A stretch of DNA of 64,000 nucleotides, from the NCBI GenBank assembly GCA_022827685.1, contig JAJEIH010000014.1, positions 3,801-67,800 on the forward strand, given 5' to 3'. This DNA comes from Alphaproteobacteria bacterium. Lineage in GTDB: Bacteria > Pseudomonadota > Alphaproteobacteria > Bin95. The notes beneath the pieces were generated by a model. That model was not told the origin of the DNA and searched no databases. It saw only the letters and a program-made list of their open reading frames with translations. Position 1 is the first letter of the stretch. The number at the start of each line of letters is the position of its first letter. Below, piece by piece: positions 29,910-37,115 of the stretch. The position numbers were made by a program, and so were the translations under genes.

Positions 29910-31052
29910 ATGATCGAAAATCGCGATACCGCCTACGGCCGGGTTCCGTTGCCGGCCGGCATCCGTTCGCGCATGGCGGCGAACGGCAACGGGCTCGACA
30001 TGCACTTCCTGGAGGCCGGTTTCGAAGAACGGGGCCGGCCCTGCGCGCTGCTGCTGCACGGCTTCCCCGAACTCGCTTACAGCTGGCGGCGCGTCATGCC
30101 GGCGCTCGCGGAGGCGGGCTACCATGTCGTCGCGCCGGACCAGCGCGGCTATGGCCGGACGACAGGCTGGGACCCGGACTACGACGCCGACCTCGCGCCC
30201 TACCGGCTCTTCAACCTCGTGCGCGATGTCATGGGCCTGCTGGACGCGATCGGCCACAGGGAAGTCGCGCTGCTGGCCGGGCACGACTACGGCGCGTCGG
30301 TCGCGGCATGGGCGGCGCTGATCCGGCCCGACATCTTCCGCAGGCTGGCGCTTATGAGCGCGCCGTTTCCAGGCCCGCCGGACATTTCGCCGCAACCGCC
30401 GCCGACGGTATCCATCCATGACGAGCTGGCGGCGCTGGACCGGCCGCGCAAGCACTACCACTGGTACTACTCGACCCGGCCGGCGAATGCCGACATGCAG
30501 GACTGCACCCAGGGAGTCCACGAATTCCTGCGCGCCTATTTCCACCACAAGAGCGCCGACTGGGCCGGGAACCGCCCCTTCCGGCTGGCGGGGTGGACCG
30601 CGGAGGAACTTGCCCGGATGCCGACCTACTACATCATGGACCTCGACCGGACGATGGCGGAGACGGTGGCCGTGGAAATGCCGGGCGCGGAGGAAATCGC
30701 CGCCTGCCGCTGGCTGCCGGACGCGGAACTCGCGGTGTATGCGCGGGAATACGAGCGCCACGGGTTCCAGGGCGGGCTGAACTGGTACCGTTGCCGGACG
30801 AGCGGGCTGTTCGACCGCGAACACGAGCTCTTCTCCGGGCGCCGTTTCGAGGTTCCCGCCTGCTTCGTTTCCGGCGCGGCCGACTGGGGCGTTTACCAGA
30901 ACCCCGGCGCGCTCGAGGCGATGGAGGAACGCGCGGCCCGCTGGGCCGGCACCTGGCTGATCGAGGGGGCCGGGCACTGGGTCCAGCAGGAGCGGCCGGA
31001 AGCCGTATCGGCGCGGCTCAGGGCGTTCGCGGCGGGCCGCGCCGATCCGTGA
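29910..31052 (+). CDS. Alpha/beta hydrolase (epoxide-hydrolase/haloalkane-dehalogenase-like)
   Basis: LLHGFPELAYSWRRVMPALAEAGYHVVAPDQRGYGRT, typical of the epoxide hydrolase family. Nucleophile elbow GHDYGA. Confidence 0.8.
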   Translation: MIENRDTAYGRVPLPAGIRSRMAANGNGLDMHFLEAGFEERGRPCALLLHGFPELAYSWRRVMPALAEAGYHVVAPDQRGYGRTTGWDPDYDADLAPYRLFNLVRDVMGLLDAIGHREVALLAGHDYGASVAAWAALIRPDIFRRLALMSAPFPGPPDISPQPPPTVSIHDELAALDRPRKHYHWYYSTRPANADMQDCTQGVHEFLRAYFHHKSADWAGNRPFRLAGWTAEELARMPTYYIMDLDRTMAETVAVEMPGAEEIAACRWLPDAELAVYAREYERHGFQGGLNWYRCRTSGLFDREHELFSGRRFEVPACFVSGAADWGVYQNPGALEAMEERAARWAGTWLIEGAGHWVQQERPEAVSARLRAFAAGRADP

Positions 31053-31120
31053 GCGGGATGACACGGCCGGACGCGCACTGCTAGGTTCGCCCTCACCCCC
31101 TCAGAAGGACATGGAGAAAG

Positions 31121-32779
31121 ATGGGCACTTCGACCGGCGCGGAGATCATGGCGCGCGAACTCAAGAAGCACGGCGTCGAATACATGTTCGGCATCGTCGG
31201 CTTTCCAGTGCAGCCGATCGCGAAGGCGGCGCAGGAGGTCGGCATAAAGTATGTCGGCATGCGTAATGAGCAGGCGGCGTCCTATGCCGCGCAGGCTGCC
31301 GGCTACCTGACCGGGCGGCCGGGCGCGTGCCTCACGGTCTCCGGGCCGGGCGTCATCCATGCGCTCGCCGGCCTCGCCAATGCCGAGCAGAACTGCTGGC
31401 CGATGATCCTGATCGGCGGCGCCTCGCCCGTCTATCAGAACGGCATGGGCGCGTTCCAGGAAGAGAACCAGGTCCAGCTCGCCGCGCCCTATTGCAAGTT
31501 CGCGCATGCGGTCGAGCACGCCCGGCGCATCCCGTTCTATGTCGAGAAGGCGGTCCGCACTTCGATCTACGGCCGGCCGGGCCCGGTCTATCTCGACATG
31601 CCGGACGACATCATCCAGGAGGCGGTCGAGGAAGACGACATCTACGAAGCGGCTCCCGTGGCCGATCCGCCGCGGATGCAGGCGATGGGCGAGGACATCG
31701 AGGCGGCGCTGGATGCGCTCGAATCCGCCGAGCGTCCGCTTGTCATTGTCGGCAAGGGCATGGCGTGGTCGCGCGCCGAGGACGAGGTCCGCGCCTTCAT
31801 CGAGCGCACCCAGGTGCCGTTCCTCGCGTCCCCGCTCGGCAAGGGCGTGATCGACGACAACCATCCGCTGTCCGTGGGCGCGGCGCGCAGCCATGCGCTC
31901 CGCGAGGCGGACGTGATCTTCCTGATGGGCGCGCGGCTCAACTGGATCATGCATTTCGGCAAGCCGCCGCGCTTCAACAAGAAGGTGCGCGTCGTCCAGC
32001 TCGACATCTCGCCGGAAGCCATCGGCAACAATGTGCCGACGGAGGTGGCGCTTGTCGGCGACGGCAAGGCGATTGTCGGCCAGCTGAACGCGGCTCTTGG
32101 CGGCCGGCAGTGGTTCTACCCGGCCGATACGGAATGGCGCAGCGCGATTGCGGAGAAGGCGGCAGGCAATGCCGAGCAGATCCGCCCGATGCTGGAGGAC
32201 GATTCCGCGCCGACCAACTACTACCGCGCGCTGAAGGACATCGCCGCCTGGGCCGGCAAGGACGCGATTATCGTTGGCGAGGGCGCGAACACCATGGATA
32301 TCGGGCGCACCCAGCTCCCGAACGCCTCGCCGCGCCTGCGCCTCGACGCCGGCAGCTACGGCACCATGGGTATCGGCATGGGCTTCGCCGTCGCGGCGGC
32401 GGTGGTGCATCCGGACCGCCCGATCATCTCGGTCTCCGGCGATTCCGCCATCGGCTTCTCCGGCATGGAGATCGAGACGGCCTGCCGCTACAAGCTGCCG
32501 ATCAAGATCGTCGTGCTGAACAATGGCGGCATCGGGCAGGGCATCCCGGAATATCCCGAGGACCCGTTCGACAACCCGGCGGGCGTGCTCATCTACGGCG
32601 CGCGCTACGACAAGATGATGGAGGCGTTCGGCGGCTTCGGCGCCTTCGTCGAAGACCCGGCGGACCTGCGGGCGACGCTCGACGCGGCGACGGCCCATGA
32701 CGGCCCGGCGCTCGTCAATGTCCGCCTGCACCCCCAGGCCGGCCGCAAGCCGCAGCAGTTCGGCTGGCTGACGACCTGA
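31121..32779 (+). CDS. Thiamine-diphosphate-dependent 2-hydroxyacyl-CoA lyase / oxalyl-CoA decarboxylase family enzyme
   Basis: N-terminal GIVGFPVQPIAKAAQEVGIKYVGMRNEQAASYAAQAAGYLTGRPGACLTVSGPGVIHALAGLANAEQNCWPMILIGGAS closely follows the HACL/Oxc pattern. TPP-binding GDSA...NN motif near the C-terminus. Confidence 0.85.
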   Translation: MGTSTGAEIMARELKKHGVEYMFGIVGFPVQPIAKAAQEVGIKYVGMRNEQAASYAAQAAGYLTGRPGACLTVSGPGVIHALAGLANAEQNCWPMILIGGASPVYQNGMGAFQEENQVQLAAPYCKFAHAVEHARRIPFYVEKAVRTSIYGRPGPVYLDMPDDIIQEAVEEDDIYEAAPVADPPRMQAMGEDIEAALDALESAERPLVIVGKGMAWSRAEDEVRAFIERTQVPFLASPLGKGVIDDNHPLSVGAARSHALREADVIFLMGARLNWIMHFGKPPRFNKKVRVVQLDISPEAIGNNVPTEVALVGDGKAIVGQLNAALGGRQWFYPADTEWRSAIAEKAAGNAEQIRPMLEDDSAPTNYYRALKDIAAWAGKDAIIVGEGANTMDIGRTQLPNASPRLRLDAGSYGTMGIGMGFAVAAAVVHPDRPIISVSGDSAIGFSGMEIETACRYKLPIKIVVLNNGGIGQGIPEYPEDPFDNPAGVLIYGARYDKMMEAFGGFGAFVEDPADLRATLDAATAHDGPALVNVRLHPQAGRKPQQFGWLTT

Positions 32780-32801
32780 CACGCTCTTTCCGGCGGCGGC
32801 G

Positions 32802-34271
32802 GTGCATGCCGCCGCCGGAACGGCGCGCGCGGCAGGACGATGGAGGCGCGGCGTGTCTCGTCTTGTTTGTGCAACGCTCTTGTTCCCGCTGCTTGCGGCG
32901 TGCCAGCAGCAGGGCATGTCCGCCCATCTTTACGGACCGCCCAAGGGCACGTCCCCGGCCTATTGGCAGGTGGCGGCCTATTCCGACAAGCCTCCCATCG
33001 GGCCCGGGACGGCCAGGGGCGTTCTCTTCTGGAGCCACGGGGTCAGTGGGCAGAACGTGCAGTGGAAGGGCAAGCCGCTTCGCTTCGTCGAGAGGTTCGC
33101 CCGCGAGGGTTGGGATGTCATCAAGGTCAACCGCAACAATCTGCATGAGCGCAATTGGAACGTCAGCGGTCCCAAACATGTCGCCGACCTGCAGAAACGG
33201 GCGAGAAAGGCGCGCAGCGACGGCTACAGGCGGGTGATCCTGGGCGGGCAGTCCTACGGCGGGGCGATTTCGCTCGAAGCGGCTTCGACAGCGGGACTCG
33301 CAGACGGCGTGGTCGCGATTGCGCCGGGCCACGGCTCCGACGCCTGCGGCAAGGGCTACGGAATCGGACGGCGCGCCGACAGTCTTCCGCGCCAACTGAG
33401 GAGAGCGCTCGAAAGGAACAGGGCGCCGCGAACCGTGCTTATGGTCGCTGACGGGGATGAGTGCGTTGGATTCAACCGGCCCCATGCCTCCTACCGCGAG
33501 ACACTGAACGCTTCCGGGTCGAGCTTCGTCTTCCTGGACGACACCATGCCCGTCCGGGGACACTTCGCAGGCAATACCAATCAGTTCGACAGGTGGTACG
33601 GCCAGTGCCTTGTCGATTTCCTGGATGCGGTCGGAGCGCCGAGGGCGGGCGAGACGGTATGTCCGTCGCCGAGCCCGGTTCCCGCCTACCTGCTGCCCGA
33701 CGGCTACCGGCCGCCTGCGCATGGAGGGCCGGGCAGTCTTCTCGGCGCCTGGAGCGGCAGCTATTCCATCGAGAAAAGGGGAACCCGCAATCTCTGCCTT
33801 CTGGTGGACAGGGAAGCCTCGGGCGGCATCAGGGCCGAGGTCGCGTTCGGCGCGGGCAGCCAGCGGAAAGCGTCGATGGTCACCTTTCGCCGGTATTTCA
33901 GCGTTGACGCCGGTAGCGGGAGCTTCATCTACGCACACAACAAATACCGCATGACTGTGAAGGCCGACGCGGAACGCGGGAATGTCTCGGTAACGATACG
34001 GACCGCGAAGGGCAGGGAGTATCGCGCCGAGCTCGAGCGCGGCTGCATGCTGGTGGACGACCGGTCGCCCGGAAAGGTTGTTTCCGGCGAGCCCGCGTCG
34101 GCCGGCCGCGCAGCCTCCTTGCCCGCTTCGCAAAGCCGAAAAGCCGCTTCGCAAGGCGCCGCGAACCGGCCGTTCGCATCGGTCGGGCCGTCCACGAGGC
34201 CGCCCCATCTGTACGGGCCGCCTACGGGTACCTCCCCGGCCTACTGGCAGGCCCGCGCCTATGGTGATTGA
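32802..34271 (+). CDS. Lipoprotein with alpha/beta-hydrolase-like domain (GQSYGG nucleophile elbow) plus a C-terminal beta-rich domain. First of two tandem paralogs.
   Basis: Lipobox LLAAC after a basic N-terminal region. LYGPPKGTSPAYWQ motif, VLFWSHG and GGQSYGGAISLEAAS. Ends at a TGA that is in frame with the next paralog. Confidence 0.65.
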   Translation: MHAAAGTARAAGRWRRGVSRLVCATLLFPLLAACQQQGMSAHLYGPPKGTSPAYWQVAAYSDKPPIGPGTARGVLFWSHGVSGQNVQWKGKPLRFVERFAREGWDVIKVNRNNLHERNWNVSGPKHVADLQKRARKARSDGYRRVILGGQSYGGAISLEAASTAGLADGVVAIAPGHGSDACGKGYGIGRRADSLPRQLRRALERNRAPRTVLMVADGDECVGFNRPHASYRETLNASGSSFVFLDDTMPVRGHFAGNTNQFDRWYGQCLVDFLDAVGAPRAGETVCPSPSPVPAYLLPDGYRPPAHGGPGSLLGAWSGSYSIEKRGTRNLCLLVDREASGGIRAEVAFGAGSQRKASMVTFRRYFSVDAGSGSFIYAHNKYRMTVKADAERGNVSVTIRTAKGREYRAELERGCMLVDDRSPGKVVSGEPASAGRAASLPASQSRKAASQGAANRPFASVGPSTRPPHLYGPPTGTSPAYWQARAYGD

Positions 34272-35360
34272 CCGCCCAGGGGACCGGAAGCGTCCAAGGG
34301 CATCCTCTTCTGGAGTCACGGCCTTTGGGGACGCACTCCCAAGTGGAGGGACAAGCCGCCGCGGTTCGTTCGGAAGTTCGCATATGCCGATTGGGATGTC
34401 GTGAAGGTGAACCGGGATGAACGACTCGCGTATCGGTGGGCGGCCGCCGGCAGCAGGCATGCAGCCGATCTCCGGGAACGCGCGCGCGAAGCCCGCAAGG
34501 CCGGCTACAAACGCATTGTGCTTGGCGGCCATTCCTATGGCGCTGCGATTGCCCTCGAAGCGGCATCGGAGCGCGGAATTGCCGATGCGGTGATCGCGGT
34601 TGCGCCCAATCACGACTCCGACAACTGCGGCGGCATGGGAGCGTCCGGATACGGCTCCACCTGGCTTCAGAGCCAACTGGTTAACGCGCTCGAAGACCTT
34701 GCTTCGCCGCGTGTCGTGCTTGCGGCCCCCGGCGGGGATGAATGCCTCGGACCGGAGCTGGCCGAAGGTTCGTACAAAAATGCGCTCGTCGCAAGCGGCT
34801 CCAGTTTCGTTCTTCTGGACGATGCCATGCCGATCCGCGGCCGCAAGGCGGGGCGGACGCGGCAGTTCGATGCGTGGTACGGCGAATGCCTGCTCGATTT
34901 CGTCGGCTCCGGCGAGGCGGCGCGAGCGGGAGAATCGGTTTGCCCGCTGCCCGATCCGGTTCCGACATTCCTGCTCCCGGCCAGTTACACGCCGCCATCG
35001 CCGACGGGGCCGAACAGCCTGGTCGGCGCGTGGGGCGGTGAGTATTTCGTCGGCAGCAGGGGCGTCAGAAATTTCTGCATGTTCATCGAGGAGGAATATG
35101 AAGACGGGTTCAAGGCCCGGACGGCTTTCGGGGCCGGCAGCGAGAGAGTGCTGTCGATGGAAACCTACACGCGCATATTTTACAGGTTCGGCGGGGACAG
35201 GGAGTTCGTTTACGACAAGAACAAATACCGCATGACCGTCTTCGACGATCCGGACCGCCGCGAACTGGAGCTCGCCATCCGAACGGCAAGCGGTGCGGGG
35301 TACCATTTCTACCTGACGCGAGGATGCAAACTTGTGGAGGACAGACCCCGGGTCGGTTGA
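34272..35360 (+). pseudogene. Second tandem paralog (same frame as the upstream gene, separated only by TGA; lacks its own Met start and signal peptide). Either a duplication remnant, a stop-codon-readthrough extension, or a sequencing error at the TGA.
   Basis: Frame 3 continues ...AYWQARAYGD*PPRGPEASKGILFWSHG...GGHSYGAAIALEAAS... with ~45-50% identity to paralog 1 over both domains. The first in-frame start candidate is a GTG at 34401. Confidence 0.45.
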
Positions 35361-35446
35361 ACGAATAAAGACCCGATAATTCAGACGAAATGCTCAAGGA
35401 GTCGTTGCTCGACTATTTGAGTAATGACCTGCCATAACGGGGAAAA

Positions 35447-35704
35447 TTACTTGTCGTCGAGTGCGTCGAAAATTACGCCGAGGGTGCAGAAGAGACCGAT
35501 CGTCACCAGCACGAACATGACCACGAGAAGGCTTTGAGAGTTCTCCGAATCGGTCAATGCCATCAGGGACGCCAATCCTGCAACGGCCACTATTATCACC
35601 GATACAGCCGTCAGGGATTTGTTTCTCTTTGCCCTCGCGGAGAGGCGTCCGAGCAGGCCGGCATCCGACGCCGTGTTGGAAACGCTCGTTTCCGGCTTGT
35701 CCAT
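35447..35704 (-). CDS. Small hypothetical membrane protein (two TM segments), lying in a local low-GC pocket
   Basis: MDKPETSV...LTAVSVIIVAVAGLASLMAL...LLVVMFVLVTIGLFCTLGVIF. Confidence 0.45.
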   Translation of the reverse strand: MDKPETSVSNTASDAGLLGRLSARAKRNKSLTAVSVIIVAVAGLASLMALTDSENSQSLLVVMFVLVTIGLFCTLGVIFDALDDK

Positions 35705-35859
35705 CTGTCCCCGCCTCTGCCGCAATCGGGTGCCTGCATTCACAATATCATGGGCAGGCAGGCGTGGATGCATTCAAATGCGGGGCTTGCGCAGGGCCGC
35801 CGGACCCGGCGGCGCATCCCGGCGCGGCGCAGGGCAAATCGCCAGCGGGAGGGCGGGAC

Positions 35860-36993
35860 TTGAGCGAATACCAGTATCTTGAGTTCCAGGCGATCGACCG
35901 CCCGCTCGACGAGGCGGACAGGGAGGCGCTCAGGGCCTTGTCGTCGCGGGCGTGGATTACGGCCACGAGCTTCTCCAATCACTATGACTGGGGCGATTTC
36001 AAGGGCGAGCCGGTCACGCTCATGGAGCGCTGGTTCGACCTGCATCTCTATCTTGCCAACTGGGGAACGCGCGAGTTGATGATCCGCCTGCCGAAACGGC
36101 TGGTGGACCGGGCCCGGCTCGACTCCGTCCTCGACGATTGCAGTCTGGCGGAAGTTATCGAGTCGGGCGACTGGCTGATCCTCGACATTCTCGACGACCG
36201 CGAGCCGGGGGACGAGGACTGGGACGACGGCTCCGGGTGGCTCGCCGCCCTGGCGCCGCTCCGGACCGACCTGCTTTCGGGAGACTGGCGCCTGCTCTAC
36301 CTGCTGTGGCTGGCGGAGGTGGAACTCGGCGGCCGGAAAGACGACGAGACCGAACCCTTGCCGGGCATCGGCCCACTGACCGGCGCGCTCAGCGCCTTCA
36401 CCGAATTCTTCCGCATCGACTCCGACCTCGTCGAGGCCGCGGCCGAGGCGCGTGGGAGCATTGCGGATGGCGACCTGTCGGCTGACGCCATAGACGCCGC
36501 TGTCGCCGCCATGCCCGGGGATGAGAAGACAGAATTGCTTCGCCGCGCCGCCGAAGGCGACCCCCATGTGGGCACGGAAATCCGGCGCCGCGCAAGACGG
36601 GCCGCGTTGGCGGCAGGCAGCGCCGCGCGGACGGCCCGCCGGACCGTGTCCGATCTCCGGAGGCGCGCAGCGGCGATCCGCGAAGGCCGGGAGGCGGCGG
36701 AAGCCGAACAGCGCGAGGCCGGACGCCTGCAGCAGGAGCGGGAAGCGGAGGAGGCGCGGCGCGCGCGGATCGTCGCCCTCAGGCAGCGAGGCGAGGCGGT
36801 GTGGGACGAGATCGAGAGCGAAATCGACAGGCGCCACGCCAGCGGCTACGACCGGGCGGCGGCGCTGCTCTCCGACCTGAAGGCGCTGGCGGAAGAGGAC
36901 GGCGCGGCGGCGTCCTTCACCGACCGGGTGAACGACCTTCGGTCGCGGCATTCCCGAAAGTGGGGATTCATCAAGAGGCTGGAGGGACTCTGA
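35860..36993 (+). CDS. Hypothetical protein (acidic N-terminal domain + Arg/Glu-rich, coiled-coil-like C-terminal half); probable TTG start after a GGGAGGG RBS
   Basis: Long ORF with coding-like composition. No family recognised. Confidence 0.5.
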   Translation: MSEYQYLEFQAIDRPLDEADREALRALSSRAWITATSFSNHYDWGDFKGEPVTLMERWFDLHLYLANWGTRELMIRLPKRLVDRARLDSVLDDCSLAEVIESGDWLILDILDDREPGDEDWDDGSGWLAALAPLRTDLLSGDWRLLYLLWLAEVELGGRKDDETEPLPGIGPLTGALSAFTEFFRIDSDLVEAAAEARGSIADGDLSADAIDAAVAAMPGDEKTELLRRAAEGDPHVGTEIRRRARRAALAAGSAARTARRTVSDLRRRAAAIREGREAAEAEQREAGRLQQEREAEEARRARIVALRQRGEAVWDEIESEIDRRHASGYDRAAALLSDLKALAEEDGAAASFTDRVNDLRSRHSRKWGFIKRLEGL

Positions 36994-37040
36994 GGGACCG
37001 GCTGTTGCCGCACCGGTTCTATACAAGTCATTGATTTCAT

Positions 37041-37115
37041 TGGTAGCGGGGGAGGGATTTGAACCCCCGACCCAGGGATTATGATTCCCCTGCTCTACCG
37101 CTGAGCTACCCCGCC
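37041..37115 (-). tRNA. tRNA-Met (anticodon CAT; could alternatively be tRNA-Ile2 decoded via lysidine)
   Basis: Cloverleaf: acceptor GGCGGGG/CCCCGCT, D-arm GCTCAGCGGTAGAGC, anticodon loop ATCATAA, T-arm GGGGGTTCAAATCCCTC, encoded CCA. Confidence 0.8.

Follow-up and report, generated by a model that had tools for sequence, protein, structure and literature searches.

We describe a gene for a putative lipoprotein that occupies positions 32802-35360 of the forward strand of a 64,000-nucleotide stretch of alphaproteobacterial DNA (contig JAJEIH010000014.1 of assembly GCA_022827685.1), the whole of which we refer to as the window. Translated from end to end, this interval gives 852 codons in one frame, and the only internal stop is a TGA at 34269-34271 that is followed by C. 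A single frame split by one TGA is what an earlier reading, made from the sequence alone, had proposed, and the translation bears it out. On the evidence set out below, we put at roughly 78% the probability that this stop arose by a nonsense mutation, CGA to TGA, that is recent, confined to this lineage and situated in a single gene for a two-module lipoprotein, where it leaves a product of 472 amino acids (aa) with the catalytic module and silences a second module that lacks the catalytic histidine.

Organization of the gene

The start codon is most likely GTG 32853, with 32802 representing an upstream over-extension, because a Shine-Dalgarno-like sequence lies just upstream of it, because gene calls on orthologous contigs open at the equivalent position (with products that begin MSRLV or MHRLV), and because the orthologous loci L003 and L010 have ATG at the matching position. 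The parts of the gene, in order, are as follows.

32842-32846, + strand: Shine-Dalgarno-like GGAGG, as read from the sequence, 6 nucleotides (nt) before the start codon
32853-34271, + strand: truncated open reading frame (ORF), closed by the premature TGA, whose 472 aa comprise the signal peptide, module 1, the linker and the 22 residues that open module 2
32853-32903, + strand: predicted lipoprotein signal peptide MSRLVCATLLFPLLAAC, with the lipobox LAAC at 32892-32903 and Cys17 at 32901-32903, conserved in the related proteins P0001-P0004
32925-33647, + strand: module 1 alpha/beta-hydrolase domain, with Ser at 33252-33254 (GQSYG), Asp at 33456-33458 (DGDEC) and His at 33561-33563 (RGHFA), placed by an AlphaFold2 model, Foldseek and conservation
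33648-34064, + strand: C-terminal domain of module 1, made up of eight beta strands and closing with RGCMLVDDR, with its strands at residues 277-376 of the AlphaFold2 model and no matching Pfam model
34065-34202, + strand: Ala/Ser/Pro/Gly-rich inter-module linker, predicted to be disordered
34203-34268, + strand: the 22 codons that open module 2 (PHLYGPPTGTSPAYWQARAYGD), which remain translated and form a C-terminal tail, from the translation and the module alignment
34269-34271, + strand: premature stop TGA, next base C, derived from CGA (Arg) by C-to-T at 34269 on comparison with relatives
34272-35360, + strand: remainder of module 2, 362 codons and a TGA stop, in frame and otherwise intact, with Ser at 34533-34535, Asp at 34737-34739 and Arg at 34842-34844 in the position of the catalytic His
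34407-35360, + strand: gene-caller ORF P0015 of 317 aa, which opens at an internal GTG, residue 519 of the full protein

The N-terminal segment has the form expected of a bacterial lipoprotein signal peptide, being hydrophobic and ending in a lipobox of the pattern [LVI][ASTVI][GAS]C. The lipobox LLAAC and both G-x-S-x-G motifs (GQSYG at 33246-33260 in module 1 and GHSYG at 34527-34541 in module 2) are found where the sequence-only reading had placed them, and its statement that the second copy has no start, ribosome-binding site or signal peptide of its own also stands. A promoter and terminator scan returned nothing above shuffled sequences, and no internal promoter ahead of module 2.

Gene callers nevertheless report two products, of which the 472-aa one (P0009) is called identically on the source contig and, independently, on one from Logan. 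The other, the 317-aa P0015, is most likely a by-product of annotation and not a gene. The earliest in-frame start past the stop is GTG 34401/34407, and a protein that begins at residue 519 drops the strands at 464-468 and 484-488, the SHG oxyanion motif, the helix at 504-511 and part of the strand at 515-521. Reinitiation at GTG 34401/34407 was rejected on these grounds, as its product would have neither the N-terminal strands, nor the HG oxyanion motif, nor a signal peptide.

A distant alpha/beta-hydrolase and its histidine-less partner

The protein is a distant member of the alpha/beta-hydrolase superfamily that belongs to no curated family. Its Abhydrolase_6 scores of 19.5 and 25.8 bits fall short of the Pfam gathering cut-off of 26.3, NCBIfam has no model for either module, and a sequence search of the PDB gave nothing meaningful (best E = 0.68). 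An exhaustive profile-free search, on the other hand, retrieved 427 cluster representatives at E<=1e-3, nearly all of them single-module proteins of ~400 aa.

An AlphaFold model of module 1 built with 67 homologues (predicted local distance difference test score (pLDDT) 92.5; predicted template modelling score (pTM) 0.91) has the canonical strand order of the alpha/beta-hydrolases, with Ser113 after strand 107-112, Asp181 after strand 172-176 and His216 after strand 203-207, and with the eight-strand beta domain following the hydrolase domain. Foldseek gave 354 hits of this model in the PDB at E<=1e-3, the best being the feruloyl esterase 7xrh_B (E = 4.6e-7, target-normalised TM-score 0.64), and the matches at E ~1e-6 include feruloyl esterase, the catalytic domains of the S9 peptidases DPP-IV/FAP, PETases and dienelactone hydrolase. 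Module 1 thus resembles the alpha/beta-hydrolase serine hydrolases in its strand order, G-x-S-x-G elbow, HG oxyanion motif and Ser-Asp-His triad, and differs from them in its sub-gathering Pfam scores, the lack of any NCBIfam or PDB sequence match and the additional C-terminal beta domain.

The G-x-S-x-G elbow is present in both modules, whereas the triad in canonical order is found in module 1 and not in module 2, where Arg takes the place of His. Across the family, Ser and Asp do not vary, and at least 90% of sequences retain His. In an alignment of 18 module sequences, His is present in all module-1 and single-module sequences, and all module-2 sequences carry Arg (as RGR or PSR). Arg is found in module 2 of all seven two-module orthologues aligned, and the module-2 sequences of L001-L004, L010 and L011 have it. 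The sequence-only reading had judged that copy 2 does not look degraded; this stands for the fold, Ser, Asp and the HG motif, all of which module 2 retains, but not for the near-invariant His. Because that catalytic His is replaced by Arg, module 2 is probably a non-catalytic or altered partner module. One single-module relative, P0059, lacks both Ser (GQYYG) and His (RGR).

In the model of full-length P0001, the two modules fold with the same order of secondary structure and are joined by a linker at residues 405-452 with a pLDDT of ~25, at an overall pTM of 0.51. The modules are thus predicted to be arranged as beads on a string, and a stop at codon 473 would leave module 1 whole because the two fold separately on either side of a disordered linker. 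Tandem duplications that pair an enzyme with a pseudoenzyme are a general concept. The present gene is similar in that one module, a duplicate within the gene, has kept its fold and the majority of its motifs, has lost one catalytic residue (His to Arg) and is under purifying selection; it differs in that the inactivity of module 2 is a reading of sequence and model and in that the model has no confident contact between the modules (pTM 0.51).

Cysteines at the hinge between hydrolase and beta domain (33606-33608 and 33660-33662, C231 and C249 of the model) and in the C-terminal RGC motif are invariant or nearly so in the family. They may form disulfides, which would fit an exported protein.

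One gene from an old duplication

An ungapped alignment of module 1 (HLYGPPKGTSPAYWQ...) with module 2 (HLYGPPTGTSPAYWQ...) spans 380 residues and has 53% identity, far beyond chance, and in this alignment the premature stop codon falls on a Lys of module 1. When several species are compared, their module sequences split into one clade for module 1 and one for module 2, with a bootstrap value of 100 for the module-2 clade, and among intact orthologues the ratio of nonsynonymous to synonymous substitution rates (dN/dS) is ~0.2-0.25 in each module, a sign of purifying selection. The identity of 53% and the cross-species separation of the module clades indicate that the intragenic duplication is old. 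The fresh tandem duplication offered by the sequence-only reading was rejected for the same two reasons, although its companion idea, a second copy on the way to becoming a pseudogene, comes nearest to our result.

At least 21 intact orthologues in the cluster listings are single ORFs of 814-846 aa with both modules. A protein search with the joined sequence retrieved P0001 (835 aa, 98% identical), P0002 (825 aa) and P0003 (831 aa), and the frame runs uninterrupted through both modules in L003 and L004, two loci from alphaproteobacterial metagenome-assembled genomes. These five, together with P0260, P0270 and P0287, are 825-835 aa long and have a sense codon at the site. The two modules accordingly form one gene and not two, as the comparison of fused with separate orthologues proposed by the sequence-only reading makes plain: the orthologues are fused, and separately initiated ones were not seen.

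A CGA-to-TGA change, probably recent

We compared the codon at the site in 11 distinct two-module loci. TGA occurs only in the window (and its copy, L008) and in one distant locus, L016, discussed below, whereas the nine others have sense codons: CGA in L001 and L017, CGG in L002, L003, L004, L009, L010 and L011, and TGG in L018. The nearest relative differs from the window at this codon by CGA/TGA only, as in L001, which reads GAT CGA CCG where the window reads GAT TGA CCG, and the lesion is therefore one C-to-T transition that struck a codon for Arg. L001 matches the window at 95.2% identity over 8.7 kb and L009 at 97.8%, and because both of these close relatives have sense codons, the TGA is specific to the window lineage. 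An exact-pattern scan of Joint Genome Institute (JGI) metagenome contigs around the stop gave no match.

When L001 and L009 are used for polarisation, module 2 shows 8 synonymous and 2 nonsynonymous substitutions private to the window lineage and is free of other lesions, compared with 7 synonymous and 9 nonsynonymous in module 1 (32853-34064), where the nonsynonymous share is larger. Neither relaxed constraint nor an additional lesion is thus visible beyond the stop, which fits a recent event. The pattern suggests either a recent stop or continuing translation of module 2; we favour a recent mutation, as no further decay can be seen downstream.

Repeated loss of module 2 among relatives

The surroundings of the gene are syntenic among relatives, with a TauD-family gene, an Abhydrolase_1 gene, a thiamine pyrophosphate (TPP) enzyme gene and then the lipoprotein gene. 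Within this conserved setting, the linker and module 2 of relatives carry ten distinct first lesions, at codons 416, 434, ~460, 473 (twice), 498, 552, ~600, 696 and ~757. L009, 97.8% identical to the window, has a +1 insertion at Trp498, and L002 has a stop in place of Glu696 that its near-twin L004 does not share. L012 and six 433-aa proteins have a stop at Gln434 in the linker as well as a deletion, and the decayed remnants of module 2 in this group are at 70-75% identity, as against 88% for module 1. In L005 and a cluster of 416-aa proteins the stop lies in the linker and module 2 is gone; L006 has an internal deletion and a stop; P0026/P0031, P0035/P0036 and P0040 have frameshifts; and P0028 is truncated at codon 552. 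Six of the ten first lesions lie within codons 405-498, which make up 22% of the length of linker and module 2 (binomial p ~0.01, for an interval chosen post hoc), and this clustering is consistent with truncations surviving where they leave behind a tidy protein of one module.

Clean one-module proteins of 408 aa also occur at the same syntenic locus (P0198, 90% identical to module 1 of the window, and L014), and in a tree of module 1 the one-module forms nest among the two-module forms, with bootstrap values of 100 for the group of the window, P0001, P0270, P0287, P0198 and P0199 and 97 for P0021 with P0027. In L014, the 480 bp just 3' of the gene (L014:6201-6680, compared with window 35361-35643) have at most 74% identity to any two-module locus, whereas the other flanks are 91-96% identical, a pattern that suggests a mosaic or an old allele class. 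The clean one-module allele may therefore go back to a single old class of alleles that recombination has spread, and not to many separate deletions, and because of this divergent 3' flank we hold the view of many independent deletions less firmly. The sequences indicate that module 2 is dispensable in nature.

Two further observations concern these relatives. The one-module protein of L014 ends in a tail, DDWPLAG, that resembles the tails of module 2. L017:2723-5308 presents the reverse case, in which module 1 is broken by frameshifts (P0058) and the linker and module 2 form an intact 435-aa ORF (P0249); the name of this contig (ctg481613l) suggests a long-read assembly, and some of the frameshifts may be sequencing errors.

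Weighing the alternatives

Several observations weigh against a recent mutation that silences module 2. In another species, represented by L016 (Logan run SRR22586462; ~75% protein identity to P0001), an in-frame TGA stands at the exact homologous codon, again with C next (GGC CGA TGA CCG), and module 2 is otherwise intact. Its sister L018 (P0260, 825 aa; 90% nucleotide identity) has TGG, for Trp, at the codon (L016:1451-1510 and L018:2816-2875 being homologous to window 34236-34295), and dN/dS between the two is 0.125 in module 2, alongside 0.17 in module 1. Two random nonsense mutations would share a codon with a chance of 0.8% if the whole gene is considered, 1.5% for linker and module 2 together and 6-8% for codons 405-500. 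The absence of relaxation in module 2 of the window is predicted by a recent mutation but equally by continued translation, and the Logan contig that reproduces the T may share reads with the source assembly, which leaves room for a C/T population mixture or a systematic error. Finally, both the catalytic inactivity of module 2 and a working truncated product are read from sequence and predicted structure.

The alternative that survives best, and that we consider improbable, is a functional leaky stop: UGA-C would be read by tRNA-Trp or another near-cognate tRNA, yielding mostly the short lipoprotein and some full-length protein, with the TGA tolerated or favoured. The TGA of the window is followed by C, and UGA-C is said, in a result credited to Poole et al. 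1995, to be the weakest termination signal in Escherichia coli. Among stops, UGA is the leaky one, at which Trp is inserted (PMC7918605; PMC9122581), and a cytosine beside the stop is enriched among translated Salmonella pseudogenes, yet their expression is only low (PMC9122581). The independent TGA-C at the same codon in L016, the TGG of L018, which shows that Trp is tolerated at the site, and the unrelaxed module 2 of both TGA lineages all speak for this possibility.

The distribution of the codon speaks against it. TGA is conserved in no clade, and its sisters have sense codons at 97.8% (CGG) and 95% (CGA) identity in the case of the window and at 90% (TGG) in that of L016. With L010 (CGG) as the outgroup, the shortest codon path in the L016 lineage is CGG to TGG to TGA, and since the window went from CGA to TGA, the two TGAs are most parsimoniously independent GC-to-AT transitions that arrived by different routes. 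The folding of the 72 nt that begin at the stop is no stronger than that of shuffled sequences (z = +0.34), and module 2 of relatives also carries frameshifts, deletions and other stops, which fits dispensability and not a tuned switch. As for the coincidence itself, about five nonsense alleles have been seen, forming ten pairs, for which the probability of one same-codon coincidence is ~8-14% over the gene or module 2 and about one half if the survivors are confined to the boundary region. Given these alleles and survivors biased towards the boundary, one such coincidence is unremarkable. Programmed readthrough, which the sequence-only reading had put forward, is not supported, given the private TGA, the CGA or CGG of the closest relatives and the lack of a stimulatory structure, and keeps a small probability from the UGA-C context and the same-codon TGA of L016. 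The in-frame stops for which Belinky et al. 2021 (PMC7918605) suggested readthrough are alike in being TGA with a coding-like, unrelaxed region downstream; they are unlike the present case in that the stop here is not conserved across diverged relatives, which is the main argument of that paper, and in that relatives here have many non-stop lesions in the same module.

A bolder version of this idea, to which we give marginally less credence still, is that the codon at the start of module 2 serves as a recurrent on/off or dimmer site, at which leaky UGA-C alleles arise repeatedly (as in the window and L016) and could revert via TGG (as in L018). If so, the leakiness of a stop codon would act as an evolvable isoform switch at a bacterial domain boundary, and the output would move from the two-module protein to mostly one-module lipoprotein with a trickle of Trp-containing full-length protein.

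There is also a slim chance, a shade smaller again, that the stop is a sequencing or consensus artefact or a minority variant, with CGA as the real or prevailing sequence and the gene intact. The source is a metagenome-assembled contig, and one base separates the window from L001 at the codon. However, the Logan contig SRR16351694_506964 (L008; run SRR16351694) is 100% identical to window 30964-36051, over 5,088 bp and with the TGA included, such that two assemblies made with different software agree without a mismatch and both have T; the split products P0009 (472 aa) and P0015 (317 aa) are likewise recorded both from a 233,965-bp NCBI/ENA contig and from Logan. Consensus-level substitution errors are rare in short-read assemblies, and genuine independent lesions of module 2 are frequent in relatives. 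An assembly artefact is unlikely, since an independent assembly reproduces the T, and the base-call error entertained by the sequence-only reading, under which a sense codon would be expected at 34269-34271, is correspondingly disfavoured.

Insertion of selenocysteine, or some other local recoding of this UGA, was rejected and has hardly any likelihood, its sole attractions being the UGA codon itself and the frame that continues beyond it, as in bacterial selenoprotein ORFs with an in-frame UGA. Unlike those, the relatives of this gene show neither Cys nor selenocysteine at the site: their module 2 has Arg or Trp, and their module 1 has Lys or Arg. The site also lies in a variable N-terminal segment and not in the active site. 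The search after the TGA for a selenocysteine insertion sequence (SECIS) or readthrough-promoting structure, which the sequence-only reading had suggested, found no SECIS-like hairpin in the 72 nt noted above. Rfam had no match, and so no SECIS, around the stop, and across the whole window it matched three tRNAs only; the 64-kb window also has no tRNA-Sec. TGA is moreover a normal stop here. Genome-wide reassignment of UGA was rejected, as TGA is the main stop of the window and ends 28 of its 37 coding-like ORFs, including the adjacent TPP-enzyme gene, which has a near end-to-end match to its family model.

Equally remote is a pair of separate tandem paralogous genes born of a fresh duplication, with the start of copy 2 lost only here: gene callers do give two ORFs, of 472 and 317 aa, but the divergence of the modules and their separate cross-species clades contradict a fresh origin, and every intact orthologue is one ORF with a linker and with no internal start or signal peptide.

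Neighbouring features

Upstream, in 29910-32779, the gene has as same-strand partners an Abhydrolase_1 protein (380 aa) and the TPP enzyme, and the other strand carries a gene for a TauD-family dioxygenase. The score of the TPP enzyme passes the cut-off of NF006721 (oxalyl-CoA decarboxylase) but not that of TIGR03254. GC content at third codon positions is 0.74-0.79 in the lipoprotein gene (32853-35357), compared with 0.90 in the TPP-enzyme gene and 0.82-0.94 in most ORFs of the window, and overall GC content drops to 0.56 around 35000-35750. Downstream, a variable spot at 35361-37040 adjoins a tRNA-Met gene (37041-37115, minus strand). Positions 35754-37040 have no counterpart in L004, L012 and L014, and mostly inside them lies a 377-aa ORF (35860-36990) that is called in L001 and L017 and has no Pfam or PHROG match; a PHROGs search of the ORFs downstream of the lipoprotein gene gave nothing useful.

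Discussion

We therefore return to a recent, lineage-specific nonsense mutation as the preferred explanation. Under it, the gene would encode an outer-surface or periplasmic lipoprotein with a lipobox-bearing signal peptide, a first module of hydrolase and beta domain, a disordered linker of ~48 residues and a paralogous second module. In this population, one C-to-T transition turned the Arg codon CGA at 34269-34271 into TGA, and translation from GTG 32853 would end at 34271 to give the 472-aa lipoprotein. This product would hold all of module 1, with its full Ser-Asp-His triad, the floppy linker and a 22-residue stub, and we infer from sequence and model that it is functional. Module 2 would no longer be made, save for near-cognate readthrough at UGA-C, which we take to be only background. 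The window would then be one case of a process that recurs in the clade, namely the retention of the first module and the inactivation or loss of the second.

The change is an ordinary early step of gene decay. It resembles nascent pseudogenes and the 'pseudo-pseudogenes' of Salmonella (PMC9122581), in which an intact ORF is likewise cut by one in-frame stop through a GC-to-AT transition, close relatives remain intact, and low-level readthrough is possible and favoured by a stop-adjacent cytosine. The difference is that the stop here falls at a domain boundary, and that the upstream product is predicted to be a complete, secreted and catalytically equipped module, like the natural one-module orthologues of 408-433 aa. 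It follows from this complete module 1 product, with its resemblance to natural one-module orthologues, that the gene as a whole is probably not dead.

For annotation, the 472- and 317-aa ORFs are best treated as one gene with a premature stop, and the 317-aa ORF not as a gene. The locus also flags an uncharacterised family of secreted alpha/beta-hydrolases of ~400 aa with a C-terminal beta domain, and gives one concrete site of possible background UGA readthrough. More broadly, it would offer a clean natural example of domain-level gene decay, in which an old intragenic duplication gave rise to an active module and a histidine-less partner, and the partner has repeatedly been shed.

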